The notes under the pieces are model-generated. The model worked only from the letters and a program-made list of their open reading frames with translations. It was not told the DNA's origin and made no database searches. Below are positions 2,975 through 63,383 of a stretch of DNA of 64,000 nt, in pieces; the first letter of the stretch is position 1, and the number at the start of each line of letters is the position of its first letter. A program made the translations under genes and the position numbers. This DNA is from a virus, in the IMG/VR virus record IMGVR_UViG_3300021478_000016, positions 78,433 to 142,432 of that record, one strand, 5' to 3'.

Positions 2975-4258
2975 ATGGACCTTCCGTTCCTGATGCTCTC
3001 CCAGTCGCGTGGACGCTCGATCTCCGGCGAGGAGCTCGAGGCGTTCGGCAAGAAGGCTGCGGAGCTCTGGTCTTCGAGCGAGAAGACCCTGAACGATGCC
3101 GTCGTCGAGACCGTCAAGCAGGCCGGACTCACGCCGGAGCAGGTGCGGAGGGTCGTCGAGTTCGCGAACACCTCGGCGTACCTCGGCGAGTTCAAGAAGG
3201 AGGGCTCCACCCATCGGGTCATCGAGTTCTCAGGTGGCCCGGCAGACCCAGCGGCCGTCCTCCAGGACCTCAACGACGGTGGTGGAGGCTCGGTCCGGGA
3301 TCGAGGCATGCTCGACTATCAGAGCCCCCCCTCTCGCAGCAAGACCGCCTCGACCGACGAAGACCTGTCGCTCAAGCAGGCATTCGAGGTGGAGAAGTCG
3401 GCTGGCATCCCGGAAGAGAACCCTCTCGGCGACGTCATCGACCTACGCGAGAAGATGGCGGGTCTGCATGACCACATCACTTCACAGATCAGCGGCCTCG
3501 AGGTCATGTACATGGATCTCTGCGAACGTCTCTTCGAGAACGTGAAGCAGGCGTCTCTCGAGGGGTACACACTCGGCGAGGTCGTGCAGGTCTGGTCGAA
3601 GGTGACCGACGAACCCGTCTTCTTCAAGACGGCCTTCGACATGCTCTCGAAGCGTCTGGTCGACAACGAGGTCTTCCGCTCCACCCTGGACATCGCCGAG
3701 TCCCTCGAGAAGACGGGGTCCTCGCGGCTGGTCAACATGGGTCACCCGTTGATCGCCGACTTCCAGGAGTACTGCGACGTCCTGATGAAGCTCGCCGGTC
3801 TGCGCGGGCAGCAGGAGAACGCCGCCTCGGCCCTTCAGGAGACCACGGAGTTCATCCTCCGTCCGGAGAAGCGCGCGAGTTTTCGCGATAGCTCCTCGGC
3901 CAGCCAGCAGGCCGGAGAGCTGAAGCAGGCTGCTGGTGGGGCGATCGGCCAAGTGCTCGACGTCGCTCGTGCCGCCGGCGAGAAGGTGGCGCCGGCTGCC
4001 GGCAAGGTCGTCGGTTCCGTCATCGGACAGGGCCCTGGAGCTCAGGAGGCCGGCAAGTACATCGGCAAGGCCATCCAGTACACGCCGCACGCCATCGGCG
4101 CGGCTCTCGGCCTGCGCGCACTTCAGCATCTACAGGCGGCGGGCCAGAGTCCGATCGGACACGCCGTCAAGTCCTTCGTGCCCGGCACGGCGGACTACCA
4201 GCAGAAGCAGTACGAGCTCCAGATGCGGTACGGCGGCATGCCGTTCGGGACCTACTGA
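2975..4258 (+). CDS. KxA-motif prohead core/internal head protein
   Basis: RBS supports ATG 2975; about 12 K-x-A motifs; Gly/Ala-rich C-terminus; upstream of the protease. Confidence 0.65.
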   Translation: MDLPFLMLSQSRGRSISGEELEAFGKKAAELWSSSEKTLNDAVVETVKQAGLTPEQVRRVVEFANTSAYLGEFKKEGSTHRVIEFSGGPADPAAVLQDLNDGGGGSVRDRGMLDYQSPPSRSKTASTDEDLSLKQAFEVEKSAGIPEENPLGDVIDLREKMAGLHDHITSQISGLEVMYMDLCERLFENVKQASLEGYTLGEVVQVWSKVTDEPVFFKTAFDMLSKRLVDNEVFRSTLDIAESLEKTGSSRLVNMGHPLIADFQEYCDVLMKLAGLRGQQENAASALQETTEFILRPEKRASFRDSSSASQQAGELKQAAGGAIGQVLDVARAAGEKVAPAAGKVVGSVIGQGPGAQEAGKYIGKAIQYTPHAIGAALGLRALQHLQAAGQSPIGHAVKSFVPGTADYQQKQYELQMRYGGMPFGTY

Positions 4259-4266
4259 GGTGGACG

Positions 4267-4941
4267 ATGAGCATCTTCGATGACGTCCTGAAGACGAAGA
4301 CGGCAGACCCGGCGGACATGGCTCGGAAGAGCATGGGTTTCGCAGGCCATCTCGGTCAGTCCCTGGCGACGGGGGCGGGTGCTGGCCTCGCCGGTGCCGC
4401 TATCGCTGGTGCCGGTGTCGCCGCCTCAAAGATCTACGACGCCATGACCAAGGCGCGTGACTTCCGAGCGATGCTCGGCTCGAGCTTCAACTCCGACCTC
4501 ATGGACTACTACCGGCAGAAGCCGAAGCAGTTCAATGAGGCGTTCAGCTCCCTGCGTTCGGCCAACCCATCGTTCAGCAAGGACCCGATGGTGGCCGGCA
4601 ACTACATGCGGCGCATCATGGAGATGCGGCCGGAGTCCGCCGGCGGCGCCATCGTCGAGTCGCTGTCGCACCGCAAGGACGTTTCGGAGTCGCCGATCTT
4701 CGACGCCTTCACCCGCTCTGGCACCTCGGTCGCCGGCGGCGTGATGGGAGAGCTCAGCAAGCCGAAGAAGACGGACCTCAAGAGCCCCGAGGAGATGGAG
4801 CAGTTCCAAGCAATGGAGCGCTTCAAGTCCACCCTCCGTCAGCGCGCAGGCGGGGAGCAGGAAGGCCACAAGCCTCGCTCGCGTCGCTCTCTCGGAGGCT
4901 CCGAGAGTTACGGAGGGACGCCGACTCCGGGCGCCGAGTGA
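4267..4941 (+). CDS. KxA-motif internal head protein with glycine-zipper segment
   Basis: N-terminal IFDDVLKTKTA followed by GAGAGLAGAAIAGAGVAA. Confidence 0.6.
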   Translation: MSIFDDVLKTKTADPADMARKSMGFAGHLGQSLATGAGAGLAGAAIAGAGVAASKIYDAMTKARDFRAMLGSSFNSDLMDYYRQKPKQFNEAFSSLRSANPSFSKDPMVAGNYMRRIMEMRPESAGGAIVESLSHRKDVSESPIFDAFTRSGTSVAGGVMGELSKPKKTDLKSPEEMEQFQAMERFKSTLRQRAGGEQEGHKPRSRRSLGGSESYGGTPTPGAE

Positions 4942-6732
4942 ATGATCTACAAGGTCAGCTACTACCTCGGCAGTGACCCGAGAGGTCCTGCCGCCATCCC
5001 CCTCTTCACAGAGAAAACGGATGGGTACTTCGAGAAGGTGGCTGCACCCAAGCTTCTGCCCGATGTGGTGAAGTACATCGAGAACCTCAAGCCCCGCAGT
5101 GACGCGCAGTACGTGCTCGTCAACGCGATGGGTGCTGGGGAGTTCTGGGGATCGAACATCAACGGAGACTACTTCCCCGAGACTGCGCTCATCCATCGAC
5201 CGGACAACTGGACAGGCAATCCACTACTCGACAAGATCCGCTCGAAGGATTGGCCGTACGGCTACCCGACCTTCTACAACGCGAAGCCCTTCCTCCACCA
5301 CCGCAACAAGGACTACCCTCCGCACAACCACCCCTCGTTCGGAGAGATCGAGCTTGCAGCTTGGAATCCGAACATGAAGCGGGTGGAGTTGGTACACAGG
5401 ATCGACAAGGACCTGTGTGCGAAGGGTGGTGGTCTGGGTCTCTGGGACAAGCTCAAGGCCGGTGACTATCCGGACACGTCGATGGGTTGCAAGGTGCCTT
5501 TCGACACGTGCTCCATCTGCCTCGACGAGCAGCGCTACAGAGAGGCTCTCGCCACGTTCGAGCCGGGCAAGCACAAGAGCCCAGGCGAGGCGGTGCTGGT
5601 CATCCACGAGAAGAAGCCCATCCGCGGTGTCTCCAAGACGCGCAACGACTACTGCTCGCACGCGCGGGACATGATGAACCGCATCTTGCCTGACGGCAGG
5701 AAGGTCTTCGTCACGAACGACTTCCCGAAGTTCTTCGACGATTCGTTCGTCTTCATCGGTGCGGACAAGACCGCCAAGATGATGATGAAGATCGCCGATG
5801 ACGAGAACTTCACGCCCACCGCTCGTGCCTTCTACGGTGTGCCGTCGGGGACAGCTACGTACTCGCCCGAGCTCGACATGAACGGCGGGGTGGACTCGTC
5901 AACCAAGCCCGAGGCAGATGAGGACATGAAGGTGGGTGAGGCCCACGACTTCGAGGCGATCCGCCTGATGTTCAAGGTCGCCGAGGCCAAGGGTGCAGAG
6001 ATGGACAAGGAGGTTGTCCCCTCCCAGTTCGCTGGCAAGGCGATTCCAGTGCTCACGCAGAAGGAGTCGGACCTGCCCAAGAGTGTCATCGACGCACTCT
6101 CGACGCGCTCTCCGGAGGAGGCTCTCTCGACGACGACGGGCATGGGGATCGTGCTTCGTCCGCACGAGTTCCAGCGGATGATGCTCAAGACCCTGGGACA
6201 GCACTCGATGGCCGACGAGCTCGAGTCTGCGGGTCTGGTCTTTCCGAAGACCAAGGACGAGGCCCCCGTGAAGATGCACAGTTCTCTCTTCAGCGACGTG
6301 CTGGCAAAGCTGCTGATTCCCCTGCTTTCAGGCCGTTCTGCATTCGGCCCGTTCATCGAGCGGCGGTGCGTCATGATCGTTGCCGGACCGGGGGGTGAGC
6401 CAGAGAAGAGGGCTTCTTCCCTTACAACGCCCCTCCTGCGTAAGATAGGAGCTGCGTACAACGGGTATCGCCGTCAGATGATGAACTTCATCACCGAATC
6501 GCAGAGCGTCCTCGCCCAGTCTTCGCTGGGTGATTCTTCGCTCTCGAAGCTTGCACACCACCCGGTGAACGAGCTATTCACTCCTCTGACGGCCGCGTAT
6601 CTCCGAGATGCCTTCATCGACGAGATGGGCGAGCTCTCAATCAAACAGGCTCACGCCGGCGTGGAGAGGGGATTCCCCTCGAGGAACACGCGAGACACCT
6701 CGAATCTAGTGGAGGATCTCCATGCCCGGTGA
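4942..6732 (+). CDS. prohead (capsid maturation) protease
   Basis: SNINGDYF, FLHHRN (His) and SMGCKVPFDTCSIC (Ser plus Zn knuckle) motifs of HK97/assemblin-fold phage proteases; lies upstream of scaffold and capsid genes. Confidence 0.8.
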   Translation: MIYKVSYYLGSDPRGPAAIPLFTEKTDGYFEKVAAPKLLPDVVKYIENLKPRSDAQYVLVNAMGAGEFWGSNINGDYFPETALIHRPDNWTGNPLLDKIRSKDWPYGYPTFYNAKPFLHHRNKDYPPHNHPSFGEIELAAWNPNMKRVELVHRIDKDLCAKGGGLGLWDKLKAGDYPDTSMGCKVPFDTCSICLDEQRYREALATFEPGKHKSPGEAVLVIHEKKPIRGVSKTRNDYCSHARDMMNRILPDGRKVFVTNDFPKFFDDSFVFIGADKTAKMMMKIADDENFTPTARAFYGVPSGTATYSPELDMNGGVDSSTKPEADEDMKVGEAHDFEAIRLMFKVAEAKGAEMDKEVVPSQFAGKAIPVLTQKESDLPKSVIDALSTRSPEEALSTTTGMGIVLRPHEFQRMMLKTLGQHSMADELESAGLVFPKTKDEAPVKMHSSLFSDVLAKLLIPLLSGRSAFGPFIERRCVMIVAGPGGEPEKRASSLTTPLLRKIGAAYNGYRRQMMNFITESQSVLAQSSLGDSSLSKLAHHPVNELFTPLTAAYLRDAFIDEMGELSIKQAHAGVERGFPSRNTRDTSNLVEDLHAR

Positions 6733-7609
6733 CATGAACGAGTTTCTGGCGGCAGCGTACGCCACGGCCCAGCCGGCACCCGTGCACACGGATGCGGCAG
6801 AGAAGGTCGCGCACGCAGAGCTGTTCGCCAAGCTGGCCGCAGAGAGCGGCCTGGACCTGACGCAGCTCACGGACGAGCAGATCGCGGCTGCCTGGAACGA
6901 GTTCCGGACGCAGGTGACGACGAAGACGGCCGAGGCGGGTCAGCCTGCGGGCCAGACCAAGGCTGCGGGCGAGCACGGTCACGCGCACAAGCACGAGCAC
7001 AAGGAAGCCGCGGCGAAGCGCGAGTTCGAGCAGACCAAGCAGGCGCAGGTCGAGTGGGAGCAGAAGAACGCCGAGGCCGACTTCCTCGGTCGTCGGATGG
7101 CCCACGCCTACGTGGACGAGCTGAAGAAGATCGCCAGCGCAACGGGCAGCCTGCCCGGTCAGACGGCGCCGGCGGCAGCTCCCGGGGAGAGCAAGGAGGC
7201 AGCGATGCCCCCGTTCCTCCAGAAGCTCAAGGGCCACGCCGCGGCAGCGGCCGGCAAGGCGAAGGACAAGGGCAAGGACGCCGTCGAGACAGCCAAGAAG
7301 CACAAGGGTCACGCCGCCGCGGCAGCCGGTGGTGCGGCAGCCGGCGCGGCCGGCGGCTTCATGGCGGGCAAGAGCAAGAAGGCGTCGGCGCTCGACGAGC
7401 TCGCGGCCCTCAAGGCGGTCGAGAAGGTCGCCGAGGCGGGTCTCGATGCGAACGAGGCGGCCGAGAAGATCGCCGCCATCTTCGGCAAGGGTGAGGTCAA
7501 GGACAGCGAGAAGATCGCGGGCGTCGAGGACTTCAACACGGCCCTCGAGGTCCGGTCTCTCGAGCTGCTCGAGCAGGTCGGCTACAAGGTCGAGTGGAAG
7601 CAGGCCTGA
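6722..7609 (+). CDS. scaffold/internal head protein (KxA-rich)
   Basis: Helical and Ala/Lys/Glu-rich; GRRMAHAYVDELKKIA; many KxA motifs. Confidence 0.65.
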   Translation: MPGDMNEFLAAAYATAQPAPVHTDAAEKVAHAELFAKLAAESGLDLTQLTDEQIAAAWNEFRTQVTTKTAEAGQPAGQTKAAGEHGHAHKHEHKEAAAKREFEQTKQAQVEWEQKNAEADFLGRRMAHAYVDELKKIASATGSLPGQTAPAAAPGESKEAAMPPFLQKLKGHAAAAAGKAKDKGKDAVETAKKHKGHAAAAAGGAAAGAAGGFMAGKSKKASALDELAALKAVEKVAEAGLDANEAAEKIAAIFGKGEVKDSEKIAGVEDFNTALEVRSLELLEQVGYKVEWKQA

Positions 7610-7631: not shown

Positions 7632-8933
7632 GTGGTCGCCGGTCGTCTGAAGCTCGCTGAAGATCCGACGGCCCCTGTCCGCGCCCAAGCTGCTGCCTCC
7701 TCGATCCCGCAGGTCACTCTTCCGACGCTTCCCGCTCCCGCAGGCAAGAAAGGTCCAGTAGGAACTTCACCTCGAACGAATTACTCTCGAGTGAACACGG
7801 GTGCTCCGCTGGCGCCTGACGCCGGCGCGGCGGAACAAAAGAGCCTTCAACCAAAGTACGGGTCGATCATGATGAACGGAACGAGCCAAGCACACACGCC
7901 GACCCTCCAGGACATGGTCAAGGCAGCCCAGACGGGTGCCCTCAGCCGGTCCCGCATCGCGACGGAGGCCCAGCGCCAGCTCGACAACGTCGGCGGAGAG
8001 AAGACCGCCGAGGAGATGTGCGAGAAGTGCAAGAAGCCGATGGAGCACTGCACGTGCAAGGCCGAGAAGAAGGGCTCTGCCTCGAAGGTCTCGACGGCGT
8101 ACGCCACGAAGGCGGCGGAGGCTCTCGAGTATCTCGCGCACGAGCTCAAGACGGAGAAGAAGGCCGCTCCGAACGCGCCGCCTCCGCACATGACCGAGCG
8201 TACGGTGGGCCCCGGTGAGGGTCCTGGCGCGATCGAGGTCTCGCACGCGACGGCGAGCACGCCGTTGCCCGACCACAAGGGTCAGGGCCATCAGCAGCCG
8301 CCGATGAAGCCGGGTGGCGAGAAGGTCTTGAAGGGCGAGCACGGCGAGACGCAGATGGCCACGAACATGGACCATCCGACGCACGGCACGACCCCGCAGA
8401 AGACGGTCGGCAAGACCGCTGCGGCGGAGCTCTACAAGGCGAACCTCACGAAGATGCTCGGCAAGGAGGCCGCGGAGAAGGTCGTTCAGACGAAGACCGC
8501 CGCTGCGGAGCTCTACAAGAAGAACTGCGAGCGCATGGGCATCAAGGTGGCCGAGGACGCCATCTTCCCGGCGCACATCACCGCGGGTCCGGCCGTGGCT
8601 CCCGAGACGAGCCAGGCAGGTCAGCCGGGTGGCGCGCCCGCCGGCGGGATGCCGCAGGGCCGCAAGGGGACCGACAGCAACCAGTCGTCGATCGACATCA
8701 CCAAGGGCCAGGCGAAGTCCGACCCGAAGTCGGACCTCAAGAAGTGGTTCGACGAGCCGGCCCTCTCGGGGTCCACGGACTCGACGCTCAGCGCGGCCTT
8801 CGACAACACGGGTCGCGCCGGCACCAAGTACGCGAGCAAGGACGAGCAGGGCGACGAGAAGGTGGCGACGGCAGCGGCTCGCGCGCTCCTCGAGAGTCTC
8901 CTCGAGAGCGTCAAGGGCCCCAAGGCAGCCTGA
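7632..8933 (+). CDS. scaffold/internal head protein (KxA-rich, disordered)
   Basis: Many KTA/KVA/KYA motifs; duplicated KTAAAELYK; start may be 7632 (GTG) or 7869. Confidence 0.6.
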   Translation: MVAGRLKLAEDPTAPVRAQAAASSIPQVTLPTLPAPAGKKGPVGTSPRTNYSRVNTGAPLAPDAGAAEQKSLQPKYGSIMMNGTSQAHTPTLQDMVKAAQTGALSRSRIATEAQRQLDNVGGEKTAEEMCEKCKKPMEHCTCKAEKKGSASKVSTAYATKAAEALEYLAHELKTEKKAAPNAPPPHMTERTVGPGEGPGAIEVSHATASTPLPDHKGQGHQQPPMKPGGEKVLKGEHGETQMATNMDHPTHGTTPQKTVGKTAAAELYKANLTKMLGKEAAEKVVQTKTAAAELYKKNCERMGIKVAEDAIFPAHITAGPAVAPETSQAGQPGGAPAGGMPQGRKGTDSNQSSIDITKGQAKSDPKSDLKKWFDEPALSGSTDSTLSAAFDNTGRAGTKYASKDEQGDEKVATAAARALLESLLESVKGPKAA

Positions 8934-9898: not shown

Positions 9899-11023
9899 AT
9901 GAGCGTCCCCGCGAGAGTCATGAACGACCTCTTCACGCAGAAGCTCGGCACTGCGGAAGGCAAGGAGAAGATCGCCGAGTACGGCGGCACATACGTGCGC
10001 GACCGTCTGCGTGAGGTGAGCTACGCGCGGAAGGTCATTCCGCCGCAGCAGGTCACTCGCGCGGACTGCCAGCGGTCGGTCAACCACGACACGCTGGTGA
10101 AGATCGTGGACGTCGAGCCGCAGAGCCGCGCGCTCACGCTCACGTTCCGTGGTCAGCCGACGGCCCGCTTCATCCGCGGTCCGAAGGCCGAGGTCGCCTT
10201 CTTCACCGTCTCCTCGGAGATGTTCCAGAAGACGGAGCAGGAGCTTCTCGCCTACGAGATGCCCATCACCAAGATCATCGAGGACAACTCGGTGAAGGAC
10301 ATCCAGGAGATCGAGGACCGCGAGTTCACGATCAACATCGAGGCGGCGGTTCAGGCGCTCCAGCAGCAGGCCAACGGCGGCGCGGTGACGACGCTCAACG
10401 CGGCGTCCATCCATGCCGGCACGGTGGTCGAGTTCTCCGTCCGCAAGGGCGAGCTCGCGCGCAACTCGACGCTCGCGGGCAGCGCCACCGTCCTGCCCAT
10501 CCAGCGGCCGGACCTCGTGAACCTCTTCAAGCTGCTGGACGGCAACAGGCTGCGCTCCGAGCGCGTCCTGATGACGGAGGTCGACTGGGACGATCTGCTC
10601 CAGTGGACGGTCGAGGACTTCGGCGACCGGCTCCAGTCGGAGACGGCCGTGGACGGCTACAAGTACAACACGCTGCTCGGCCGCGCGTACATCCGCACGG
10701 TCAAGACGGACATCCTCCGTCCGGGCAACGTGTACGTCTTCACCCGTCCGGAGTTCTTCGGGAAGTTCTACGTCCTGAACAACTCGAAGTTCTACATCGA
10801 CAAGATCGCGAACATGATCACCTTCCAGGCATGGGAGGACATCGCGATCGGCATTCTCAACATCGCCGCCGTGCGCAAGCTCGAGCTCTACTCGGGCGAC
10901 GCGACGACGAACAACGCGGACGGCATCCTCGCGTCCGTGATTCCCGTGACGGAGGACCAGCTCGGTGCGGTGAACAACCAGGTCGACGCCGGCCTCCAGT
11001 TCCCGCAGGTCCAGCAGTTCTGA
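9899..11023 (+). CDS. major capsid protein (HK97 fold, encapsulin-like type)
   Basis: 374 aa; DRLREVSYARKVI N-terminus and AWEDIAIGILN C-terminal strand; head-operon position; strong RBS. Confidence 0.85.
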   Translation: MSVPARVMNDLFTQKLGTAEGKEKIAEYGGTYVRDRLREVSYARKVIPPQQVTRADCQRSVNHDTLVKIVDVEPQSRALTLTFRGQPTARFIRGPKAEVAFFTVSSEMFQKTEQELLAYEMPITKIIEDNSVKDIQEIEDREFTINIEAAVQALQQQANGGAVTTLNAASIHAGTVVEFSVRKGELARNSTLAGSATVLPIQRPDLVNLFKLLDGNRLRSERVLMTEVDWDDLLQWTVEDFGDRLQSETAVDGYKYNTLLGRAYIRTVKTDILRPGNVYVFTRPEFFGKFYVLNNSKFYIDKIANMITFQAWEDIAIGILNIAAVRKLELYSGDATTNNADGILASVIPVTEDQLGAVNNQVDAGLQFPQVQQF

Positions 11024-12224: not shown

Positions 12225-12728
12225 ATGCTCAAGGTCTACAAGTTTCGGGAGATGGATGAGATCATCGCTTTTCTCAGCGGTGCAGTCTTCGGCACGGACG
12301 TCTCGTTCTTCCGCCAGGCCATCGTCAACGGGTCAGCCGGGTACAAGGTGGCGCCCTCGCTCGTCGGGCTCACGTTCAAGACCAAGTCCCCCGGCCCAGC
12401 AGGTACCTGTACCTTCGTCGCCGGCGCTGATACGGCTGGAGGTCGTCTGACTCCCGCTGAGATCAAGACGCAGATCGAGGCAGGCATCTCCGGTCTCAAG
12501 GTGACCTTCTTCGAGGGTCGCCTTGCTATCGCCGAGGCAACGCCCGCAAGCGGCGTGACGGTGGACCACACCGGCACGTCGAACGTCGCACTCGGTTTCG
12601 ACACGAACGCCGACGTCGTGGGCAAGTTCTTCAACTCGCCCTTCAGTGGAGCGCCTCCGACGACGCCGTACATGGTCCAGGCGTACTCGGTGAACGACAA
12701 CATGCACGTGGTCTACACTTGGGAGTGA
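12225..12728 (+). CDS. putative virion structural protein
   Basis: Beta-rich; located in the structural operon. Confidence 0.5.
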   Translation: MLKVYKFREMDEIIAFLSGAVFGTDVSFFRQAIVNGSAGYKVAPSLVGLTFKTKSPGPAGTCTFVAGADTAGGRLTPAEIKTQIEAGISGLKVTFFEGRLAIAEATPASGVTVDHTGTSNVALGFDTNADVVGKFFNSPFSGAPPTTPYMVQAYSVNDNMHVVYTWE

Positions 12729-12736
12729 GGCTCAAG

Positions 12737-15106
12737 ATGGCGACGGCATTCGACCCCATGTTCCGGCAGGGCCCTTCGATGGGCGAGGGTGCGGACTTCT
12801 TCCTCAAGCTGAAGAAGTTCGCGGAAGATCCGGCGACGGGTCCGGCGGAGCCGATGGCTTCGTCGGGAGCTCCGTTCCAGGACCAGGTCCTCGAGCTGAT
12901 GCTCAACATGGTCCAGAACGAGTTCAAGACCATGCTCGCCTACAAGACCTACGCGCAGACGCTGCGTGGGCCCGAGCACTTCGGTGTGGCGAAGGAGTTC
13001 GAGGAGCATGCCGAGAACGAGATCGAGCATGCCGACTTCTTGCTCCGCCGTCTCTCGGTGCTGATGGGTGGTCCGGTGCCGGTGCCGGACATCCCAGCTC
13101 CCGAGCCTCTCGACTCCTGCGAGGACATCATTCATGCGATGATCGCCATGGAGCAGGAGGGCATCAAGAACTGGCAGAACCTCCTCTCGATGCTGGGCGA
13201 CAACCCGACGAAGTACAAGGTCGAGGAGTTCCTGGCGCGGGAGCTGCACCATGTCGACGAGCTCTTCCAGCTTCTTCCCTCCGAGACCGCGCAGGCGCAG
13301 CAACCGCAGCCTGGTGGCTCCACTTCTGCTCCTCCTGCTGCTCCTCCTGCTGCTCCTCCTGCTGCTGAACAGCCCGAAGCTCCGCCGGCTACTCCTCAAG
13401 CTGGTGATGGACCTCAGGCCGGGCAGCCGCCCGGTCTGAAGCTCTCGAGCGTCAAGACCGCTGCGCGTCAGCGCTTCACGCGGGACGACAAGGGAAACAT
13501 CGTTCAGATCCCCGCTCGCTACGAGGGCAACCCCGAAGACCCGGGCTCGTTCTCGAGCGCCCTCGACGAGGCGTTCAAGTACGCGTGCAAGACCGCCGGC
13601 ATCAAGATCCCCGCTCCATCCCACGACAGCACCAAGGGCAGCTCCGAAGCCAAGACGCCGAACGGTGCCCAGAACCTCGACGTCTTCGACGCCGGCGGCA
13701 AGGAGGCATCCAACACGGGCCTCGGCAAGCCGCCGGTCGTCCCGATGGAGAACGAGCCGACGAGCGACGCGAAGGATCCGCAGGAGGAGACGAAGCAGGC
13801 AGCCGCTGCTCCCGAGCATCTTCGCAAGGCGAAGGAACGCGGTGAGGCCAATGCTGTCGCGCGCTCCACGCAGATGAAGGGTCAGCGCGGAGAGCTCTAC
13901 GGAGACCTCGTCGGCCGCCTTCTCGGCGGTGCTGCTGGTTGGAAGGCGGGCAAGACTCTCGCTGGCAAGAGTGGAAGCACGCTCGCTCGCGTCATGGGGG
14001 TCGGCATGGCCCAGGCTGCGGGCGGCCGGGTGGGGAAGCAGATCGGGAGAGAGGCCGACGCTGCACGCGCCAAGAAGAAGTACGGCGCAGCCCTCATCGA
14101 GAGCCTGCCGTCCTTCCTCAAGACCGCCCTCGAGGACGAGATGAACATGCTCGCCCAAGAGCAGGCGGCAGAGCAGGCGGAGATGGCCAACGCCGGCCGC
14201 TTCTACGCGACCCGCGCGCAAGAGCACGCGCAGGCCCGACAGGCGCTCGAGCAGCAGCTCCAGCAGGCGCAGTCGGACCTGGAGCAGAAGGAGACGTCGA
14301 TCCAGCAGATGCAGGAGGCCATGGCCGCCAACTCGTCGGCTGCGAGCGAGTCCACGACCAGCGCCATGCTCCAGGCCGTCAACTCGAATACACAGGCCAT
14401 CCAGCAACGGCAGCTCGCCTCCGACGCGGCCAACGCGAACATGACCCTGCGCGACCAGCTCCGTCAGCTCGCCGACGGACCGAGCGACGGCAACCCGCAG
14501 GGCCCCGGTGACATCCAGGGTGCCGTCCAGGGACCCTCAGGCGGCCCGACCTCCGGCAACGGGGAGAAGGAGCTCCAGGACGGTCCGGGCAGCGCCCCGC
14601 CGGCTGGCGAGAGCAACGCCTACCAGCCCATCCAGAGCCCCGAGAGCGGGCTAGCCAAGGGCGAGCCTGGACGCGTCGTGGGCATCGCCGGCGACAGCCG
14701 GCAGCCCTCCACGCCCTCGGCCTACAAGGACGGCGGGCAGGGCAAGCAGGCGGGCCTCCAGCTCCCGCCGGACGTCAAGGCGAAGCTCCGCGGCATGGGT
14801 CTGGGCGCCGCGGCCGGGGCCGGCGTGCTCGGTGGGGCGACGGCCATCGAGGCGGCACGGGGACCCGGACCGGTGCGCGAGAAGGTGGAGAAGCTCGAGG
14901 CGAAGCCGGAGAGTTTCCGCAACTCGATGCAGACCGCGCAGGCGAAGGGGCATCTCGCGTTCCGCGAGGCAGTGGCAGAGCATCCGGTAGCCGCGACGGC
15001 GGCCTCGATGCTTCCTGGTGCTGCGCTCGGGGCATCTCTCGGTCCGGCGGCGGTGAGCGCCGGCAAGAAGGTCATCCAGAACATCAAGGCGCTCCGCGCT
15101 CAGTGA
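12737..15106 (+). CDS. multi-segment internal head protein with an N-terminal ferritin-like (bacterioferritin/rubrerythrin) domain
   Basis: Four-helix pattern NEFKTMLAY / ENEIEHA / MEQEGI / RELHHVDEL, then KxA-delimited glycine-zipper and coiled-coil segments. Confidence 0.75.
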   Translation: MATAFDPMFRQGPSMGEGADFFLKLKKFAEDPATGPAEPMASSGAPFQDQVLELMLNMVQNEFKTMLAYKTYAQTLRGPEHFGVAKEFEEHAENEIEHADFLLRRLSVLMGGPVPVPDIPAPEPLDSCEDIIHAMIAMEQEGIKNWQNLLSMLGDNPTKYKVEEFLARELHHVDELFQLLPSETAQAQQPQPGGSTSAPPAAPPAAPPAAEQPEAPPATPQAGDGPQAGQPPGLKLSSVKTAARQRFTRDDKGNIVQIPARYEGNPEDPGSFSSALDEAFKYACKTAGIKIPAPSHDSTKGSSEAKTPNGAQNLDVFDAGGKEASNTGLGKPPVVPMENEPTSDAKDPQEETKQAAAAPEHLRKAKERGEANAVARSTQMKGQRGELYGDLVGRLLGGAAGWKAGKTLAGKSGSTLARVMGVGMAQAAGGRVGKQIGREADAARAKKKYGAALIESLPSFLKTALEDEMNMLAQEQAAEQAEMANAGRFYATRAQEHAQARQALEQQLQQAQSDLEQKETSIQQMQEAMAANSSAASESTTSAMLQAVNSNTQAIQQRQLASDAANANMTLRDQLRQLADGPSDGNPQGPGDIQGAVQGPSGGPTSGNGEKELQDGPGSAPPAGESNAYQPIQSPESGLAKGEPGRVVGIAGDSRQPSTPSAYKDGGQGKQAGLQLPPDVKAKLRGMGLGAAAGAGVLGGATAIEAARGPGPVREKVEKLEAKPESFRNSMQTAQAKGHLAFREAVAEHPVAATAASMLPGAALGASLGPAAVSAGKKVIQNIKALRAQ
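13326..13361 (+). repeat. 12-bp tandem repeat x3 (CTGCTCCTCCTG) encoding a Pro/Ala linker
   Basis: Direct inspection. Confidence 0.9.
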
Positions 15107-18962: not shown

Positions 18963-21836
18963 ATGGCGTCGAGTGGCCTGCCGCAACCCGGGGTCGAAGT
19001 CATTCAGGTCTTCCAGACGGTCAGCCCCACCGTCATCACCCCGACGCTCGTTCCGTGCGTCGTCGGCGCCTGCAAACAGGTCGTCGATGCTGTGGTGCCG
19101 AGCGCCACGGGCAGCACCCAGGTGAACTCGGGGGCGCAGGTCGAGAAACCTGCCACGCTCACGGCCATCGCCGCAACGGGCGGACCTCCGGTCGTCTACA
19201 CGCTGAACGGGAACCTCAAGTTCGCGTCCGATGGGCTGCCGACCGTGACCGTGAACTTCGTGAGCGGTACGTACACGCCGCAACAGGTGGTCACCATGGT
19301 CAACGCCGCGATCCTCGCGGCGGGTCAGTCCAACCTCGTCGCCGAGCTCGTGGGCACCACGCAGTGGCGCCTGCGCACGCTCTCGGAGACGGACTTCGAC
19401 TTCATCTCGGTCGACCCGACTTCGACGTCCGGCGTGCTCACGGCGTTCGGCTTCTTCGGCAACGAGTTCAAGTCCGGCGCGGCTTCGTACCACCAGTTCC
19501 AGGTCACGATCCCCACACCGTCGTTCCCGGACCCGAACAACAACCTCGCGCAGCTCGCCATCGATACGACCACCATCCGTGGATTCCTCGGCATCTCGGG
19601 CAACGCTGCTCTTCAGGAGGCGCTGCGCACGCAGACCGTCCTGCGCAAGGGTGGCGCCACGACGGTGATCGATAGTGGAAACGGAACCGGCTTCTCGAAC
19701 ATCATCCAGGCCGCAGGACAGGACTTCACGTCCCTGTCTACGGTGGCCACGGTGGCGTCCGTGACCGGCTCGGCAACGCCGACGTTCGGCAGCCTGGCGG
19801 GCAAGACCCTGGTCGTCTCGGATGGACGTGAGCCCATCACAGTCACGTTCGGGACGTGCGCGGTCATCGGCGATGTCGTCGCACAATTCAACGCGTTCTT
19901 CAGCGCGACGGACGGCATCCTCGCCTCGGCCTCGGGCACGGACCTCACGCTCACCAGCACGCGCCTGCGTGAGGATGGCCTGACGACCGCTCTCGGTGAG
20001 GACAGCTCGATCGTCCTGCTCGGCGGCAGCGCACTGTACCCGACCAACCTCCTCGATCCGGGTGGCACGCCGACCCTCCACATCGGCCGCTACACCGGCA
20101 GCCCGATGGCTGTCTTCCCCGGCGACCAGCTCTTCATCGACGGTGTTCTCGTCGGCGTCATCAACCAGGTCGCTCCGAACGGACAGAACGCGCAGCTCCG
20201 CGTCAACGCGAACAAGCCACTCTCGTTCACCGGCAGCCACTTCTACATCGTGGCGACGAGCCTCGCGGCTCTGCCCGGAGAAACAGCGAACCGCCCGCGT
20301 CCCGACTTCATCGTGGATGCGAACGGCAACGCGACGTTCAAGCACGGCCTGCTGCGAGACTCGAATGGAGTCGTCGTCGAGTCGCTCCAGACGTCGGCCC
20401 TCGTCGAGCCGAGCAGCAACATGTACATCGCGTACAAGGCGCTGCGACTCGATGTCTCGAGCAGGGCGACGAACCCGGGTCTGCTCCAGTTCAGCGACAC
20501 GGCGACGCTCCAGAGCCAGCTCGCTCCCATCACGACGGACAACCCGCTGGGTCTCGGTCTCTACTTCGCCCTGCTCAATGCACCGGCGGTGCAGATCACC
20601 GGTCTGGGTGTGGACGCAGTGTCTCCGAGCGAGCCGTTCGGCACCCTGGCAGCGTTCACGGATGCGGCGACGTTCCTCGAGCAGTTCGAGGTGTACGCCA
20701 TCGCGCCCCTGACGCACGAGACGACGGTCCATCAGGTCTTCCAGACCCACGTCGACACGATGAGCGCGCCCGAGAACAAGGGTGAACGCATCGTGCTCGT
20801 CAATCCGAGCAAGCCCGTCAACCGGCTCAATGCGCTGGTGGCATCCGGCACGGACGGCAACACGATCGGCACGGGCGGCCTGACCTTCGACACGGGCATC
20901 GCCAACCTGACCGCGCTGCTCGTCGCTGCGGGGATCTCGAACCCGGCCTCCATCCCGGTGAGCTCGGGCGTCTTCCTCAACATCAGCGACAACAACCTCA
21001 ACTACAACGTCTCGGCGGTGAGCGGGTCGGTCGTGACGGTGAACATCACCTTCACGGGCAGCCAGAACACCGACGGCTTCTTCTCGACGACGGACCTCAA
21101 GACTCCGCCGCTCCCATCGGCGCTCATCGAGGACCCGTTCTCCATCAAGGTCCGCGGCACGCCGCTGGTCTTGACGGACGGCATCACGCCGGACAAGCCG
21201 AGCATCGCCTCGACCATCACGGCCATGGCGCAGGCGTTCCTCGACCGCCGCGTGTGGATGGTCGTGCCCGATACGTGCGCCGCCACTCTCGGTGGGGTGG
21301 AGCAGGTCCTCGACGGCTTCTACATGTGCGCGGCCATCGCGGGCATGATCGGTCAGCAGCCTCCGCAGCAGTCGTTCACCAACTTCCCGATGACTGGCTT
21401 CACGCGCGTCATCGGCTCGAACGACTTCTTCACGCCGCAGCAGATGAACCAGATGGCTGGTGGCGGCGCGTACATCATCCTCCAGGACGTGAAGGGCGTC
21501 AGCCCGCTGTACTCGCGTATGGCGCTGACCACCGACCTCACGTCCATCGAGACGAGGACGGACAGCATCACGAAGATCGTGGACTTCTGCGCGAAGTTCT
21601 ACCGCACCGGTCTGAAGAACTTCATCGGGCGGTTCAACATCAACCAGGGTCTCCTCGACTCACTGGGTCACGTGCTCCAGGGTCTCACGGGATTCCTCAC
21701 GGAGTCCGGCGTCCTCATCGGCGCGCACGTGAACAACTTGATCCAGGACACCGCGGCTCCCGACACCGTGCTCGTCGACATCACGCTCGACGTGCCATTC
21801 CCCTGCAATTACATCCGCATCACGCTCGTCATCTGA
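18963..21836 (+). CDS. contractile tail sheath protein
   Basis: N-terminal QPGVEV, C-terminal VDITLDVPFPCNYIRITL; 957 aa. Confidence 0.9.
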   Translation: MASSGLPQPGVEVIQVFQTVSPTVITPTLVPCVVGACKQVVDAVVPSATGSTQVNSGAQVEKPATLTAIAATGGPPVVYTLNGNLKFASDGLPTVTVNFVSGTYTPQQVVTMVNAAILAAGQSNLVAELVGTTQWRLRTLSETDFDFISVDPTSTSGVLTAFGFFGNEFKSGAASYHQFQVTIPTPSFPDPNNNLAQLAIDTTTIRGFLGISGNAALQEALRTQTVLRKGGATTVIDSGNGTGFSNIIQAAGQDFTSLSTVATVASVTGSATPTFGSLAGKTLVVSDGREPITVTFGTCAVIGDVVAQFNAFFSATDGILASASGTDLTLTSTRLREDGLTTALGEDSSIVLLGGSALYPTNLLDPGGTPTLHIGRYTGSPMAVFPGDQLFIDGVLVGVINQVAPNGQNAQLRVNANKPLSFTGSHFYIVATSLAALPGETANRPRPDFIVDANGNATFKHGLLRDSNGVVVESLQTSALVEPSSNMYIAYKALRLDVSSRATNPGLLQFSDTATLQSQLAPITTDNPLGLGLYFALLNAPAVQITGLGVDAVSPSEPFGTLAAFTDAATFLEQFEVYAIAPLTHETTVHQVFQTHVDTMSAPENKGERIVLVNPSKPVNRLNALVASGTDGNTIGTGGLTFDTGIANLTALLVAAGISNPASIPVSSGVFLNISDNNLNYNVSAVSGSVVTVNITFTGSQNTDGFFSTTDLKTPPLPSALIEDPFSIKVRGTPLVLTDGITPDKPSIASTITAMAQAFLDRRVWMVVPDTCAATLGGVEQVLDGFYMCAAIAGMIGQQPPQQSFTNFPMTGFTRVIGSNDFFTPQQMNQMAGGGAYIILQDVKGVSPLYSRMALTTDLTSIETRTDSITKIVDFCAKFYRTGLKNFIGRFNINQGLLDSLGHVLQGLTGFLTESGVLIGAHVNNLIQDTAAPDTVLVDITLDVPFPCNYIRITLVI

Positions 21837-27121: not shown

Positions 27122-27705
27122 GTGAATGCTCGCCTTGCCTTGATCATCTCGATGAGCTCCCCCCATGACGTAAGACGATCGAGGTCCTTGGTCTCTTCCC
27201 CTCTGTTGCAAGGGTGGTCCCAGAGAAAGGCCGCGCCGTCCGGATTCGCTTCTTGCCATGCGCGCACGTTCTGATGCTTGTCATCCACGAAGAGGTCTCC
27301 TCGCAGGATGTACTTCGTCTCGATGTGCACTATGCGCTTGTGGCTGATGCCGTAGTGCAACTTCAGCCACGTCTCCCGCTCGTGAGCCCAGGTAGCTGAG
27401 CCCGAGAGCGGGGACGTGACGATGTGCAGCTCGGTCAGATCTTGCAGCAACGCGATGGCTGGCTGTGAGTTGACCAGTGGCTTGAGGTTCATCGCGAACC
27501 CCGGAGCTCGCAGCAACTTGTCGTAGGTCTCCTTCTCGGCCTTGGTCGCGAAGGGGAGGTTGCCGGTGAAGTCCCAGTCCGTGATGGTGTCGCGATCGAG
27601 GCCTTGTCCGGTCACGAGCTTGTAGAGATCCAGTGCTCCTCCAACGAAGTCGGACAAGACCCCATCGCAATCGCAGAGGAGCCGAATGACTCTCCCCTTC
27701 TTCAC
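27118..27705 (-). CDS. 5'(3')-deoxyribonucleotidase (HAD, NT5C-like)
   Basis: CDCDGVLSDF motif I, IVTSP, K..LRGDLFVDD. Confidence 0.88.
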   Translation of the reverse strand: MKKGRVIRLLCDCDGVLSDFVGGALDLYKLVTGQGLDRDTITDWDFTGNLPFATKAEKETYDKLLRAPGFAMNLKPLVNSQPAIALLQDLTELHIVTSPLSGSATWAHERETWLKLHYGISHKRIVHIETKYILRGDLFVDDKHQNVRAWQEANPDGAAFLWDHPCNRGEETKDLDRLTSWGELIEMIKARRAFT

Positions 27706-29982: not shown

Positions 29983-30278
29983 TGCGGCTGCTGAAGGCAT
30001 GGGTTCACCTGATCGCAGGAGGTCACGGTTGAGATGCACTTGGGAGCCTGAGGAACATCGGTCTGTTCTGCGTCACGACAGCGCTCTGCGTAGGTCTTGC
30101 CGAGCGTGTTCGGACCGCCGAGAAGACGGCCCTGGCTGTCGGTACAGCCCAGGGTCAAGAGCTTGGCTTGTGCGGCATCGCAGAAGGACGAATCGTCCGG
30201 CGCCGGCGCTTTCGGATTCTGCTTCGTACATGTCGAGGCTGAGATGCTCAGAGCGAGCAGGCAGACGAGTTTGAACAT
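29979..30278 (-). CDS. small Cys-rich secreted protein or lipoprotein
   Basis: Signal peptide ending in ASTC; several further Cys. Confidence 0.6.
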   Translation of the reverse strand: MFKLVCLLALSISASTCTKQNPKAPAPDDSSFCDAAQAKLLTLGCTDSQGRLLGGPNTLGKTYAERCRDAEQTDVPQAPKCISTVTSCDQVNPCLQQPQ

Positions 30279-60372: not shown

Positions 60373-60750
60373 GTGAACCCGTACTTCGAGACCGTGCGTG
60401 CGGCCTTCCTCGACGAGCTCGAGAAGATCGCCGCATCATCCAAGCTGCTCCGTCATGGGAAGGCTCGGGTGGGTCGTCGCCCCCTTCGGGTTGCGACTCT
60501 GCTCCGCAAGGAGAAGGACGGGGAGATCTACAAGTTCAGCGGTGATGGGTCCATGGGAAACGTGGTGCCGTTCTCCAACGAGGATGCCCCAGGAGTAACC
60601 GGCCGTGCCGCTCAGGCACCGAAGTCCCCAAACGATGTCCCCTCTCGAGAAGATGGACGCGAGAACTCGGGTACCAAGATCCCTGGCACCGGTCGCTTCG
60701 TCATGGCGCCGGCAGCGGCCAACAGCCCCGAAGAACACGGCAACTACTAG
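60373..60750 (+). CDS. FxDELxKIA-tag protein
   Basis: AFLDELEKIA near the N-terminus; TAGACT 6 nt before the GTG. Confidence 0.65.
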   Translation: MNPYFETVRAAFLDELEKIAASSKLLRHGKARVGRRPLRVATLLRKEKDGEIYKFSGDGSMGNVVPFSNEDAPGVTGRAAQAPKSPNDVPSREDGRENSGTKIPGTGRFVMAPAAANSPEEHGNY

Positions 60751-60759: not shown

Positions 60760-61212
60760 ATGAAGACCGCGTTCATCGACGAGTTCGAGAAGATCTCCAA
60801 CGCCGGCGGCGTGAGCTTTCTCCCCGGCCTGATGAAGACCGCCAGGCCGAACGAAGACTTCGCCGTCTCATCCAAGAAGTCGAACACTGGCAAGCCGGCC
60901 TACCCCATCCCGGACAAGAAGCACGCCATCTCAGCTCTGGGTTTCGCGAAGATGCACCACGACTCGGCAGATCTGGCCGAGGTCCGCAAGGACGTGGCAG
61001 CGAAGTACCCGGACCTGGTGCACAAGGCCGCCTCTGTCCTCGTCGCCGTCACGAAGTTCGCCAACGACTCGTGCGTGCCGAAGAAGGGCAAGGAGAAGGA
61101 CAGCAACATGGGCATGGGCACGTACGGCCCGGCCAGTGCGGCACCTCCGGGCATGATGGGTGGTCCCCCTCCCGGTGCTGCGATGAAGGCAACGATGCAG
61201 GCGGGGATGTGA
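60760..61212 (+). CDS. tagged protein with a DUF6582-like YPIPDxxHA module
   Basis: MKTAFIDEFEKIS; YPIPDKKHAISAL..KYP; KTA/KAA/KFA motifs. Confidence 0.65.
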   Translation: MKTAFIDEFEKISNAGGVSFLPGLMKTARPNEDFAVSSKKSNTGKPAYPIPDKKHAISALGFAKMHHDSADLAEVRKDVAAKYPDLVHKAASVLVAVTKFANDSCVPKKGKEKDSNMGMGTYGPASAAPPGMMGGPPPGAAMKATMQAGM

Positions 61213-61213
61213 C

Positions 61214-61531
61214 ATGCAGCCCTCGTTCACGGCCTTCAAGGAGGAGCTGCTCGCCATCAAGGAAGCTGGCGGCTTCTCTAATCTCATGCGCGGGCTGGCC
61301 TCTGAGGCTGGCACGCACAAGACGGAGATCGCCGGGCTCGGCGTGCTTGCCGCACCCAGTCTCGATGAGGCGCAGGCACACGCTCGAGCGGCTGTCGCTG
61401 GCGACTACAACAAGGCTGGCGTGGAGAAGAGGACTCTCCTCCCCCATGTTGCCAAGCCGGCCACGGAGCTCGCCGGACTCGGCATGCTGATGGGTCCCTC
61501 CATCGCGCATCTGAAGGGCTACGGTCCCTGA
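61214..61531 (+). CDS. tagged protein with duplicated TE(I/L)AGLG hydrophobic segments
   Basis: AFKEELLAIKEAG. Confidence 0.65.
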   Translation: MQPSFTAFKEELLAIKEAGGFSNLMRGLASEAGTHKTEIAGLGVLAAPSLDEAQAHARAAVAGDYNKAGVEKRTLLPHVAKPATELAGLGMLMGPSIAHLKGYGP

Positions 61532-62370
61532 TGAACCTCTCGTCCACCCTCGATGAGCTCGAGAAGCTTGGCGTCATCAGCGCCGAGGAGGCTCGTCGCA
61601 CGCTCGATCGCCTGGACAGCATCGAGAAGAGCAAGCCTACGTCCACGCAGGCGCTCCAGTACGGTGCTCTGGGGGCCGGGGCTGGAGCTCTCACCAGGGG
61701 GATTGGCCATGCCATCGAACACGGGCACCTTCCGACGAAGCGCAGCCTCCTGGGGGCAGCGGCTGGCGGAGCAGTTGGTCTGGGCGCTGTGCCTCTTCTT
61801 CGTACTGGTCTCGATCGTCATCGAGAACGCAACAAGCTGCGCTCTTTCATGGCGCAACCCGAGGTGAAGACGGCGGAGAACGAAGAGGAGTTGAAGGAGG
61901 CGCCGGCGGGGAAGCTGCCGGTGTCCTTCAGCAACATCGGGAAGATCTCGATGCCGGCGTCGTCGTACAGCACGCCCATCGAGGGAGCGAAGCCCAACAT
62001 CATGGAGAGTCGCGGGCCGATGCGTTCGATGCCCATCACGGCTCCCTTCCTGAGCCCGAAGGTGGCCTTCACGGTCTCGCAGTACAGCGGTCCGCTCAGC
62101 ATGGGTCCCTTCAAGATGGTGAGCGGCATGCCTCCGTTCACGGCGCCCTCGCTGCGCGCCGGCTTCACCAAGAAGCAGGATGCGCTCCAGATGGCGAAGA
62201 GTTCTGGGGCGATGGCTCAGACAGGGCTGACACCCAAGAGTCTTCTCTCCTCTGGCCAGGCGCTGGCCAAGCCGAAGATCACTAACCCTTCAGGCCCCAG
62301 CATCGGAGACCTCTCGAAGCCCATCGGCTTCGGCTCCAAGCTGCCGGGCGCGACGAAAGGGACGCTCTAA
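61531..62370 (+). CDS. tagged glycine-zipper protein
   Basis: LDELEKLG; GALGAGAG; GAAAGGAVG; VKTA; PKVA. Confidence 0.65.
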   Translation: MNLSSTLDELEKLGVISAEEARRTLDRLDSIEKSKPTSTQALQYGALGAGAGALTRGIGHAIEHGHLPTKRSLLGAAAGGAVGLGAVPLLRTGLDRHRERNKLRSFMAQPEVKTAENEEELKEAPAGKLPVSFSNIGKISMPASSYSTPIEGAKPNIMESRGPMRSMPITAPFLSPKVAFTVSQYSGPLSMGPFKMVSGMPPFTAPSLRAGFTKKQDALQMAKSSGAMAQTGLTPKSLLSSGQALAKPKITNPSGPSIGDLSKPIGFGSKLPGATKGTL

Positions 62371-62837
62371 TGCCTGCCTGGATTCACGATCGCGCGGAGC
62401 ACATCCTCGCGAAGAACCCCGACATGGGCAAGTCGACAGCCTTTGCCATCGCCACTCAGCAGAGCCACGCCACAGGGCATTCGCCCAAGGGCTACGGCAC
62501 AGCGCAAGGCAAGCGGAAGGCGAAGGCCAAGTTCGATACGCCGAAGGACGACGTGCAGTCGGCCAACCCTGGTGGTCTCGAGAGCCCCAAGATGGGGTCT
62601 GTGATGGTCGAAGCCTTCTTCGACGAACTGGGGAACATCAAGAACGCCGGGCTTCTGGAGGGCGTGAAGAAGGTGCTCACGACGCCCATACCAGGCACTC
62701 CGGAGATCTTCCCCCATGCAGCCATAGAGGCGGCAGGGAGGTTCGGGAAGACGGCTCCTGCTACTCTTCCCGCAGTCGCCAAGAAAACACCACAAGACTG
62801 GCGGGCCAACAGGGCTGCTGCCTGGAAGACACCGTAG
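62370..62837 (+). CDS. tagged protein with an N-terminal AxAIA helical module
   Basis: KSTAFAIATQQ; AFFDELGNIKNAG. Confidence 0.65.
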   Translation: MPAWIHDRAEHILAKNPDMGKSTAFAIATQQSHATGHSPKGYGTAQGKRKAKAKFDTPKDDVQSANPGGLESPKMGSVMVEAFFDELGNIKNAGLLEGVKKVLTTPIPGTPEIFPHAAIEAAGRFGKTAPATLPAVAKKTPQDWRANRAAAWKTP

Positions 62838-62846
62838 GAGGATGCC

Positions 62847-63383
62847 ATGACGTACAAGCCCGAAGAGGTCATCGATCTGCGGTCTCGAGCTCTGGATGCC
62901 CAGGGACCATCGGCCGACAGGTTCGAAACGGACTTCATGAAGTTCGCTCACGAGAGCTCCGCTCAGGAGAAGCTCGCGAACGAAACGTCCGATGTCGAGA
63001 CCGAAGGCAGCCTCGACTCGAACATCGACCGCTCGACGGTCGAGACGAACCACGTGAACCAGACGGCGGAAGAGACCAACGGGATGACCGGCAAGGACCC
63101 GCTGGGCATGAACACCTACCGCTGGGGGGAGAAGGCGCCGGAGGATCAGCCCGGGACCTCTGGGCGCCGCCATGACGCCGAGACTCTCTCGACTTCGGCC
63201 GAGGAGATCAACAAAGAGGACAACCTCGACCTCCTCGCCCGCAGCTTCAATCAGTTCACGGAAGCGCGGCGCAACGCGCAGTCGGTGGTGTCCCAGAACC
63301 TCGACCACGGCAAGCCCGGCTCGTACGTGACGCGTTCGAAGACCCTCCTCGAGAAGGTGCAGGGCACGACCGGGCGTCGCTGA
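62847..63383 (+). CDS. KxA-motif hydrophilic protein
   Basis: FMKFA, EKLAN; AGGAGG RBS. Confidence 0.6.
   Translation: MTYKPEEVIDLRSRALDAQGPSADRFETDFMKFAHESSAQEKLANETSDVETEGSLDSNIDRSTVETNHVNQTAEETNGMTGKDPLGMNTYRWGEKAPEDQPGTSGRRHDAETLSTSAEEINKEDNLDLLARSFNQFTEARRNAQSVVSQNLDHGKPGSYVTRSKTLLEKVQGTTGRR

Follow-up and report, generated by a model that had tools for sequence, protein, structure and literature searches.

K-x-A motifs and a portable helix in proteins of a large uncultured myovirus point to a possible two-part peptide code for head assembly

The DNA analysed here (the window) is a stretch of 64,000 nucleotides, positions 78,433 to 142,432 of IMG/VR virus record IMGVR_UViG_3300021478_000016. 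It forms the final 64 kb of one 142,432-bp contig with 61% G+C, and the source phage is a large uncultured myovirus. Two elements are considered: the short motif K-x-A, which is abundant in proteins of the head module, and a longer amphipathic helix, here called the tag, which recurs in head-module proteins and in a distant island of small genes. The original prediction took them for a capsid-addressing and cleavage system, in which a protease encoded at position 4942 cuts at K-x-A and the helix docks cargo into the prohead. At least 259 relatives were found in IMG/VR, with capsid proteins 74-89% identical and contigs of up to 195 kb, while the only cultured relatives found, Salmonella phage Arash and three Vibrio phages, are all very distant.

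The head module and a prohead-protease homologue

Open reading frames (ORFs) are named by their start, and positions are those of the window unless given as genome positions. The head module contains the following genes.

305 to 2125, plus strand: large terminase (Pfam GpA_ATPase, 1e-13; phrog_675, 6e-62), the negative control for K-x-A
2975 to 4258, plus strand: the head-module protein richest in K-x-A, related to Arash gp220
4267 to 4941, plus strand: small head protein with a degenerate N-terminal tag, IFDDVLKTKTA (nt 4273-4305), followed by a Gly/Ala-rich hydrophobic segment
4942 to 6732, plus strand: predicted prohead protease; catalytic domain at about nt 4942-5841, H120 codon at 5299-5301, S180 codon at 5479-5481
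6722 to 7609, plus strand: scaffold-like protein rich in Ala, Lys and Glu, with an internal tag, AYVDELKKIA (nt 7106-7135)
7632 to 8933, plus strand: low-complexity, K-x-A-rich head-module protein
9899 to 11023, plus strand: major capsid protein (phrog_2522, 9e-09), 28% identical to that of Arash

The gene of ORF 4942 sits between the terminase and capsid genes. Its N-terminal 300 residues were modelled together with 36 homologues by AlphaFold2 (predicted local distance difference test, pLDDT, 75.6; predicted template modelling score, pTM, 0.73). A Foldseek search with this model returned phage T4 gp21 (5jbl) first, at E 0.056, with the proteases of human cytomegalovirus (HCMV), Epstein-Barr virus and herpes simplex virus lower. 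VIA-align against 48,161 chains also placed 5jbl first (Z 6.7, root-mean-square deviation 3.0, 130 of 165 residues), followed by the proteases of varicella-zoster virus (VZV; Z 6.6), HCMV (4.5) and Kaposi's sarcoma-associated herpesvirus (3.7). Since two methods agree, four members of the assemblin fold match and the gene position fits, the model makes a convincing case that ORF 4942 encodes a prohead-protease homologue of the gp21/assemblin fold, a relationship that holds at the fold level only. A portal had been considered for this ORF and was rejected on the same result. A portal was also considered for ORF 2975, whose sequence has a helical look and a Gly-rich tail; ORF 2975-4258 is probably a processed core or internal protein. 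In Arash, the portal is annotated far away from the head module.

In the alignment of protease homologues, H222 is the same in all sequences, and H119, H120 and S180 in nearly all. Judged by this conservation, S180, H119/H120 and H222 are candidates for the counterpart of the Ser-His-His triad of herpesvirus assemblins. H120 and S180 lie 60 residues apart, compared with 55 for His85 and Ser140 of T4 gp21. The protease genes of three relatives (L010, L052 and L069) carry inteins of ~370 residues with LAGLIDADG domains, inserted exactly between SMG and the following C; inteins favour catalytic sites. In a fourth relative (L063) the insertion site is eight residues further on, and many database representatives of the protease (900-1700 aa) are interrupted at the profile position of the SMG/C site. 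These inteins, the near-invariance of S180 and the first rank of gp21 in both searches bear out the earlier assignment of ORF 4942 as a protease using the serine of SMG. The family reaches 2693 clusters at E <= 0.001, and the public names of six of these clusters read 'hypothetical protein' throughout.

The catalytic domain of ORF 4942 is followed by a conserved A-D-K-T-A-K and an M-K-I-A, a linker with E-K-T-A-S, a conserved C-terminal domain, S-K-L-A and a tail. The S-K-L-A (K536-L-A) has a conservation of 0.92, and about 20 residues further on lies the tail motif L-F-T-P-L-S-x-x-Y-L-x-x-A-F-x-D-E, which carries the core of the tag, A-F-x-D-E (nt 6610-6651, AFIDEMGELSIKQA). The same elements extend far into the family. 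In the post-catalytic parts of 40 divergent representative proteases, K-x-A occurs 249 times against 80 expected (z 22) and is by far the top residue pair, and the last 80 residues of the proteases show a seven-fold excess of the tail motif A-[FY]-x-[DN]-E.

Enrichment and conservation of K-x-A

The number of K-x-A expected in each predicted protein was obtained by shuffling it 1000 times with its composition kept. For the head module, the counts were as follows.

ORF 2753/2975-4258: 13 K-x-A among 24 lysines, 2.6 expected, z 7.2
ORF 4942: 8, 3.7 expected, z 2.6
ORF 6722: 15, 7.7 expected, z 3.2
ORF 7632: 13, 6.7 expected, z 2.8
Terminase: 0 among 37 lysines, 2.0 expected, z -1.6
Capsid protein: 2, 1.5 expected, z 0.4

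The strong enrichment in head-module ORFs that had been read off the letters is therefore confirmed by composition-matched shuffles, and the individual counts were also right: about half of the ~24 lysines of 2975-4258 lie within K-x-A, the terminase has none among its ~37, and the capsid protein has two, one of them EKIA at residues 23-26 (nt 9965-9976). When all residue pairs with gaps 0-3 were scanned in five head ORFs, K-x-A ranked first (50 against ~22.4-22.5, z 6.7-6.8) and none of the other K/A spacings was enriched; the first rank among all gapped pairs shows that K-x-A was not cherry-picked. Ten other tagged or neighbouring proteins hold 31 against 17.1 expected. K-x-A is mildly depleted in the remaining 88 plus-strand genes (87 against 107.7, z -2.2) and neutral in the 47 minus-strand genes (40 against 38.8). 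Its excess is thus confined to head-module and tagged proteins, and sheath, fibres and terminase have none.

Conservation was assessed in alignments of homologues from 80 related loci, with mean column identities of 26-46%. In all families tested, lysines within K-x-A are better conserved than the remaining lysines (0.50 against 0.33, 0.53 against 0.24, 0.73 against 0.47, 0.56 against 0.19 and, in the family of ORF 7632, 0.52 against 0.23). Eight K-x-A sites of the 2975 family are conserved among 41 homologues of 36% mean identity. The motif also persists in two linkers that are hypervariable, rich in insertions and deletions and otherwise unalignable between relatives. The protease linker has K-x-A in 21 of 21 distinct homologues (3.0 per linker, 0.88 in shuffles), and the linker of the 2975 family has it in 26 of 27 (2.0 per linker, 0.34 in shuffles); most of these sites read E-K-T-A-S or K-[RH]-A-S. 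A motif that outlasts change all around it in this way looks like a functional linear signal. The pooled logo of 1590 K-x-A sites reads E(-4), L/M/F(-2), E/V(-1), K, T/I/L/Q/V, A, S/A, A. In the capsid protein, K-x-A is conserved in 97% of 63 homologues, which is little informative since the whole protein is 79% conserved. Its EKIA is a possible end of a short propeptide, and the aligned Arash capsid protein has K-E-A two residues from the position of EKIA.

One possible explanation is that these patterns are a by-product of low complexity rich in Ala, Lys and Glu, or of paralogous small domains, and signal nothing. The head ORFs are indeed rich in Ala and Lys, and units of the form EK-x-A...G-[LI]-D-L repeat in the 6722 family and in Arash gp223/gp225. 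However, the enrichment was measured against shuffles that preserve composition (z 6.8) and does not extend to other K/A spacings. The conservation of the lysines, the persistence in linkers and the z of 22 in divergent protease tails also argue against this explanation, as does the tag described below, which is found on proteins with different Pfam domains and dissimilar bodies. We regard a mere by-product as very improbable and already disfavoured.

The K-x-A pattern is widespread across divergent proteases and loci. Loci whose protease is 37-39% identical (G+C 51-62%) have the same module, K-x-A reaching z 3-5.6 in the corresponding proteins; their terminase-like neighbours are not enriched. 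The genes gp218-gp226 of Arash (OQ632216, L081) stand in the same order, in which a 2975-like protein is followed by a small Gly-zipper protein and the protease, and these in turn by scaffold-like proteins and the capsid protein. The protease homologue is gp222 (27.6% identity, E 2e-36), annotated merely as 'structural protein', which keeps H-H-x-N-K-D, S-M-A-C and a post-domain E-K-V-A. K-x-A-[SAG] occurs at high density in gp220-gp225. Arash has been called an orphan phage; it thus gives access, through a cultured virus, to this large group of uncultured phages.

A helix shared by unrelated proteins

Six copies of the pattern [AGS][FY]x[DE]E[LMF] are present in predicted proteins of the window (starting at nt 6610, 7106, 60403, 60769, 61232 and 62613), compared with 0.25 in shuffles (at most 4 in 2000 shuffles). 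Besides the head-module genes listed above, the window has tagged genes in an island of small proteins near its end.

60373 to 60750, plus strand: small protein with N-terminal tag AFLDELEKIA (nt 60403-60432)
60760 to 61212, plus strand: small protein with N-terminal tag AFIDEFEKIS (nt 60769-60798); 6 K-x-A against 2.7 expected
61214 to 61531, plus strand: small Gly-zipper protein with N-terminal tag AFKEELLAIKEA (nt 61232-61267), found by the pattern
61531 to 62370, plus strand: Gly-zipper protein with a short N-terminal tag, LDELEKLG (nt 61549-61572)
62370 to 62837, plus strand: two-module protein with internal tag AFFDELGNIKNA (nt 62613-62648)

We also built a profile of the tag from the copies of relatives only, for which the best reversed-sequence decoy scored 3.2 bits. 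Nine matches in the whole genome exceed this decoy, all of them on the plus strand.

ORF 60373: 24.2 bits
ORF 6722: 19.9 bits
235-aa ORF at genome 57624: 15.1 bits
ORF 60760: 13.5 bits
71-aa ORF at genome 36144: 11.4 bits
ORF 62370: 8.1 bits
ORF 61531: 5.3 bits
C terminus of a GNAT-like protein, genome ~27.2-27.9 kb: 5.2 bits
C terminus of an InPase-domain protein, genome 22277-22795: 4.3 bits

Weaker copies are present in ORFs 4267, 61214 (2.3 bits) and 4942. The tag is found on ~13 proteins genome-wide, including a pyrophosphatase and an acetyltransferase outside the window. In an all-against-all BLAST, the tagged proteins have only the 10-30 tag residues in common and their bodies are unrelated. 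The claim that a longer amphipathic helix recurs in otherwise unrelated proteins thus held, with six sites against 0.25 expected. Two of the copies it had named are weaker: LDELEKLG of ORF 61531 nevertheless scores above all decoys, and IFDDVLKTKTA of ORF 4267 is backed by its orthologues, which start N-P-[LV]-[DE]-E-F-[LF]-x-x-K-x-A. The number of proteins had been set too high, however. About 10 in the window, rather than more than 15, have a tag or an individually significant K-x-A content, and about 15-16 do so in the whole 142-kb genome.

In 31 relatives whose corresponding region was retrieved, most have one to six copies of the tag, in genes just downstream of the homologue of a 1045-aa protein, and these island copies usually read M-x(8-10)-[AS]-F-x-D-E-L-x-K-I-A-[AS]. 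In the 6722 family, the block GR-x-MAH-[AS]-[YF]-V-x-E-L-x-K-I-A, which holds the tag, is the most conserved block of the protein (26 homologues). General K-x-A sites have flanks, E(-4) [LMF](-2) [EV](-1) K x A [SA], that agree with the tag consensus D-E-L-E-K-I-A-A, and the tag can therefore be read as an extended form of the K-x-A site. In the 83 kb of Arash examined, the tag model of this clade found no tag (scores <= 1.4); hence K-x-A is common to both, whereas the helix is specific to this clade.

Several tagged proteins lie outside the window. The InPase-domain protein (Pfam PF18823, 2e-40; genome 22277-22795, L115:5277-5795) and the GNAT-like protein (genome ~27224-27925, L115:10224-10925) have the tag at their C termini, which end in GFIDELTAIEARG and GFRDELTKLR, respectively, and their genes are flanked by those of giant fibre-like proteins (1443 and 1103 aa). 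Among the InPase orthologues, the tag is kept in the closest ones (5 of 13 loci retrieved), and in one it stands between the InPase and a Gly-zipper module. Proteins with this type of InPase have been predicted on independent grounds to be packaged in virions and to be associated with GNAT domains (PMC5512222). K-x-A also exceeds expectation in ORFs of a second small plus-strand island at genome 55267-58331 (L113; 5 against 1.5 and 8 against 2.4), which includes an N-terminally tagged Gly-zipper protein, AFRDELQKLAAPGG.

The setting of these genes raises another explanation, namely that the helix docks to a hub outside the capsid interior, for instance the tail or baseplate, a chaperone or a membrane, and that K-x-A belongs to the structure of helices and marks no site of cleavage. 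The six-gene tagged island comes after large, putative baseplate proteins, so called in an earlier note, and the InPase and GNAT genes stand between fibre-like giants. Many tagged proteins have Gly-zipper, membrane-like segments, and several K-x-A sites lie in conserved helices. Against such a hub, the tag core is found on the prohead protease and on the scaffold-like protein, both of which act inside the prohead, and K-x-A is enriched only in head-module and tagged proteins. A role in helix structure also fails to explain why K-x-A-S is the sole conserved element of disordered, indel-rich linkers. We consider docking to another hub quite improbable.

A possible two-part code and its precedents

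We lean towards the view that this clade uses a two-part head-assembly peptide code, consisting of a K-x-A cleavage signal and a portable capsid-loading helix, in which the cutting, the scissile bond and the targeting are predictions. In this model, the signal for the ORF 4942 serine protease (His120, Ser180) would be E-x-[LMF]-[EV]-K-x-A with Ser, Ala or Gly as the next residue, with the cut probably after Ala, by analogy with herpesvirus assemblins. The sequence [AS]-F-x-D-E-L-x-K-I-A-[AS] would be a portable docking helix that brings unrelated proteins into the prohead and is then removed by a cut at its own K-I-A. The helix would be placed at the N terminus of small proteins that look membrane-active, at the C terminus of the pyrophosphatase and acetyltransferase, or between modules. 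Because the protease tail carries the same core, A-F-x-D-E, just after K-L-A, protease and cargo probably share one receptor inside the shell, and cleavage would free both. The original interpretation agrees with the protease homologue, with the flanks that link K-x-A to the helix and with the occurrence of the tag on unrelated bodies. Its different specificity would, however, not be unprecedented for the fold, as herpesvirus assemblins cut at x-x-A/S.

The capsid targeting sequence (CTS) of T4, MKTYQEFIAE, is the closest likeness. It is borne by the internal proteins IPI-III and Alt and is removed by gp21; like the predicted peptide described here, it is a short amphipathic N-terminal peptide on diverse proteins. 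The two systems share the protease fold, and the tagged cargo resembles effectors delivered with the DNA. The CTS ends in the motif of its own protease, as the tag is predicted to do, and brings diverse internal proteins into the core (PMC3012670). The differences are that the tag reads A-F-x-D-E-L-x-K-I-A, that the putative site is K-x-A plus a small residue instead of L/I-x-E, and that the tag, as far as sequence tells, is also placed C-terminally and between modules. By analogy, the best reading is a T4-like arrangement with a different tag, a herpes-like site and placement at either terminus or between modules.

In the herpesvirus assemblin-scaffold polyprotein pUL26, the protease is followed by an R site (YLQA-T), a linker, the scaffold, an M site (VQA-S) and a C-terminal tail that binds the capsid protein; both sites are cut after Ala and before Thr or Ser, and the cut at the M site frees the tail (PMC4498786). 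ORF 4942 has a similar layout of protease, K-x-A, linker, domain, K-x-A and tail, and its tail may be likened to the capsid-binding one. K-x-A-[SAG] would match the x-x-Ala/Ser pattern of assemblins, and the VZV protease is among the best fold matches (Z 6.6). In contrast to pUL26, where P3 is hydrophobic, P3 would be Lys here, and many separate cargo proteins share the tail motif.

The large myoviruses phiKZ and SPN3US process many head proteins at S/A/G-x-E; their N-terminal propeptides have 20-24 residues, with multiple cuts in long ones, and the SPN3US protease gp245 removes its own C-terminal propeptide by autocleavage (PMC10052503). The likeness to phiKZ gp175 and SPN3US gp245 would thus lie in the processing of head proteins of a large myovirus at a three-residue motif. 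The motif is a different one, a shared addressing helix is not described for these phages, and their capsid protein and protease are only remotely related. In HK97, a short C-terminal peptide of the maturation protease reportedly suffices to direct encapsidation (Duda, Oh and Hendrix 2013); unlike here, no family of cargo proteins re-uses it. Encapsulins, whose shell has the HK97 fold, and microcompartments also use short, portable terminal peptides that address proteins to the shell interior, and there too unrelated enzymes share the peptide. Those peptides are not removed by a shell-associated protease and are unrelated in sequence, and the present system belongs to a DNA-packaging virus.

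A number of observations weigh against a load-and-cut code. Among phage proteases with this fold, those characterised cleave after Glu instead of Ala (PMC10052503), and K-x-A is a putative cleavage motif; since herpesvirus assemblins cut at Ala/Ser-type sites, such a site is not foreign to the fold. The fold matches of ORF 4942 are moderate (Z 6.7, Foldseek E 0.056). ORF 4942 and its 36 homologues have no Pfam match even at E <= 5, and thus none to Peptidase_S77, S78 or U35; the profile of the protease domain has no sequence match in the PDB at E <= 1, and no PHROG model matches the protease. The capsid EKIA is followed by Glu instead of a small residue. Half of the tagged genes adjoin tail-fibre-like or baseplate-like genes and not the head module. 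Several conserved K-x-A sites sit in conserved helical segments, where they could be structural, for example as the start of the repeated small helical domain EK-x-A...G-[LI]-D-L. For all proteins of the clade, both cleavage and encapsidation are inferred from sequence. Mass spectrometry of Arash virions detected the homologues gp220-gp225 in particles (PMC10585845), which is weak support, as 116 proteins are listed and the supplement gives neither peptides nor termini.

The helix might also serve only as an extended recognition element of the protease (an exosite or optimal substrate) without any addressing role. The tail of the protease would then be a pseudo-substrate or autoinhibitor, and the tagged proteins would get to the head, or be processed elsewhere, by other routes. 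Such a role fits the tag ending in a general K-x-A site with shared flanks and the tag core in the protease tail, and the present results do not distinguish binding to the protease from binding to shell or scaffold. In T4, however, and reportedly in HK97, such peptides are paired with encapsidation, and the scaffold-like 6722 protein has the tag internally, in its most conserved block. Moreover, a cut at a C-terminal tag leaves the enzyme intact, which fits release after delivery better than mere processing. We regard recognition alone as unlikely.

It is tempting to extend this two-part code, at slightly less than even odds, to the large protease family as a whole (at least 2693 clusters at 50% identity), which may have a herpesvirus-like Lys-x-Ala/Ser specificity, with a separate portable docking helix in each clade. 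Searches of the literature returned no K-x-A motif of prohead proteases and no paper describing a load-and-cut code.

Proteins packed in the heads of large, mostly uncultured phages are hard to find without virion proteomics. If the code exists, the cargo delivered with the DNA could be listed from metagenomic sequence alone; here, it would comprise the pyrophosphatase and the acetyltransferase, many small membrane-active proteins and possibly a ferritin-like protein. The tag could then also serve to load these capsids with foreign proteins. The code would further show that an Ala/Ser specificity, so far known from herpesviruses, can occur in phage proteases of the gp21 fold, which would tighten the evolutionary link between both assembly systems. 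Arash, with its homologous protease and K-x-A-rich head proteins, is a cultured relative for testing the code.

Searches of Pfam and PHROGs with the head-module and island ORFs gave no match for the tagged proteins and named only the terminase, the capsid protein, a sheath-like protein (18963-21836), a ferritin-like domain and a papain-like protease. A lysine-rich 2131-aa ORF outside the window (genome 65968-72363, L114:3968-10363) lies ~6 kb upstream of the terminase gene; its K-x-A count, 7, is below the 12.2 expected. The ferritin-like / rubrerythrin domain (Pfam, 2e-13) occupies residues 64-185 of a 795-aa head-module protein (12719-15106, plus strand). This protein may be packaged as cargo. 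Its K-x-A content is not raised (9 against 7.4 expected), and only a small number of homologues was recovered. The papain-like protease has a cysteine protease domain of the papain family (Peptidase_C1, 2.5e-07); its minus-strand gene, at 29182-30039, is distant from the head module.

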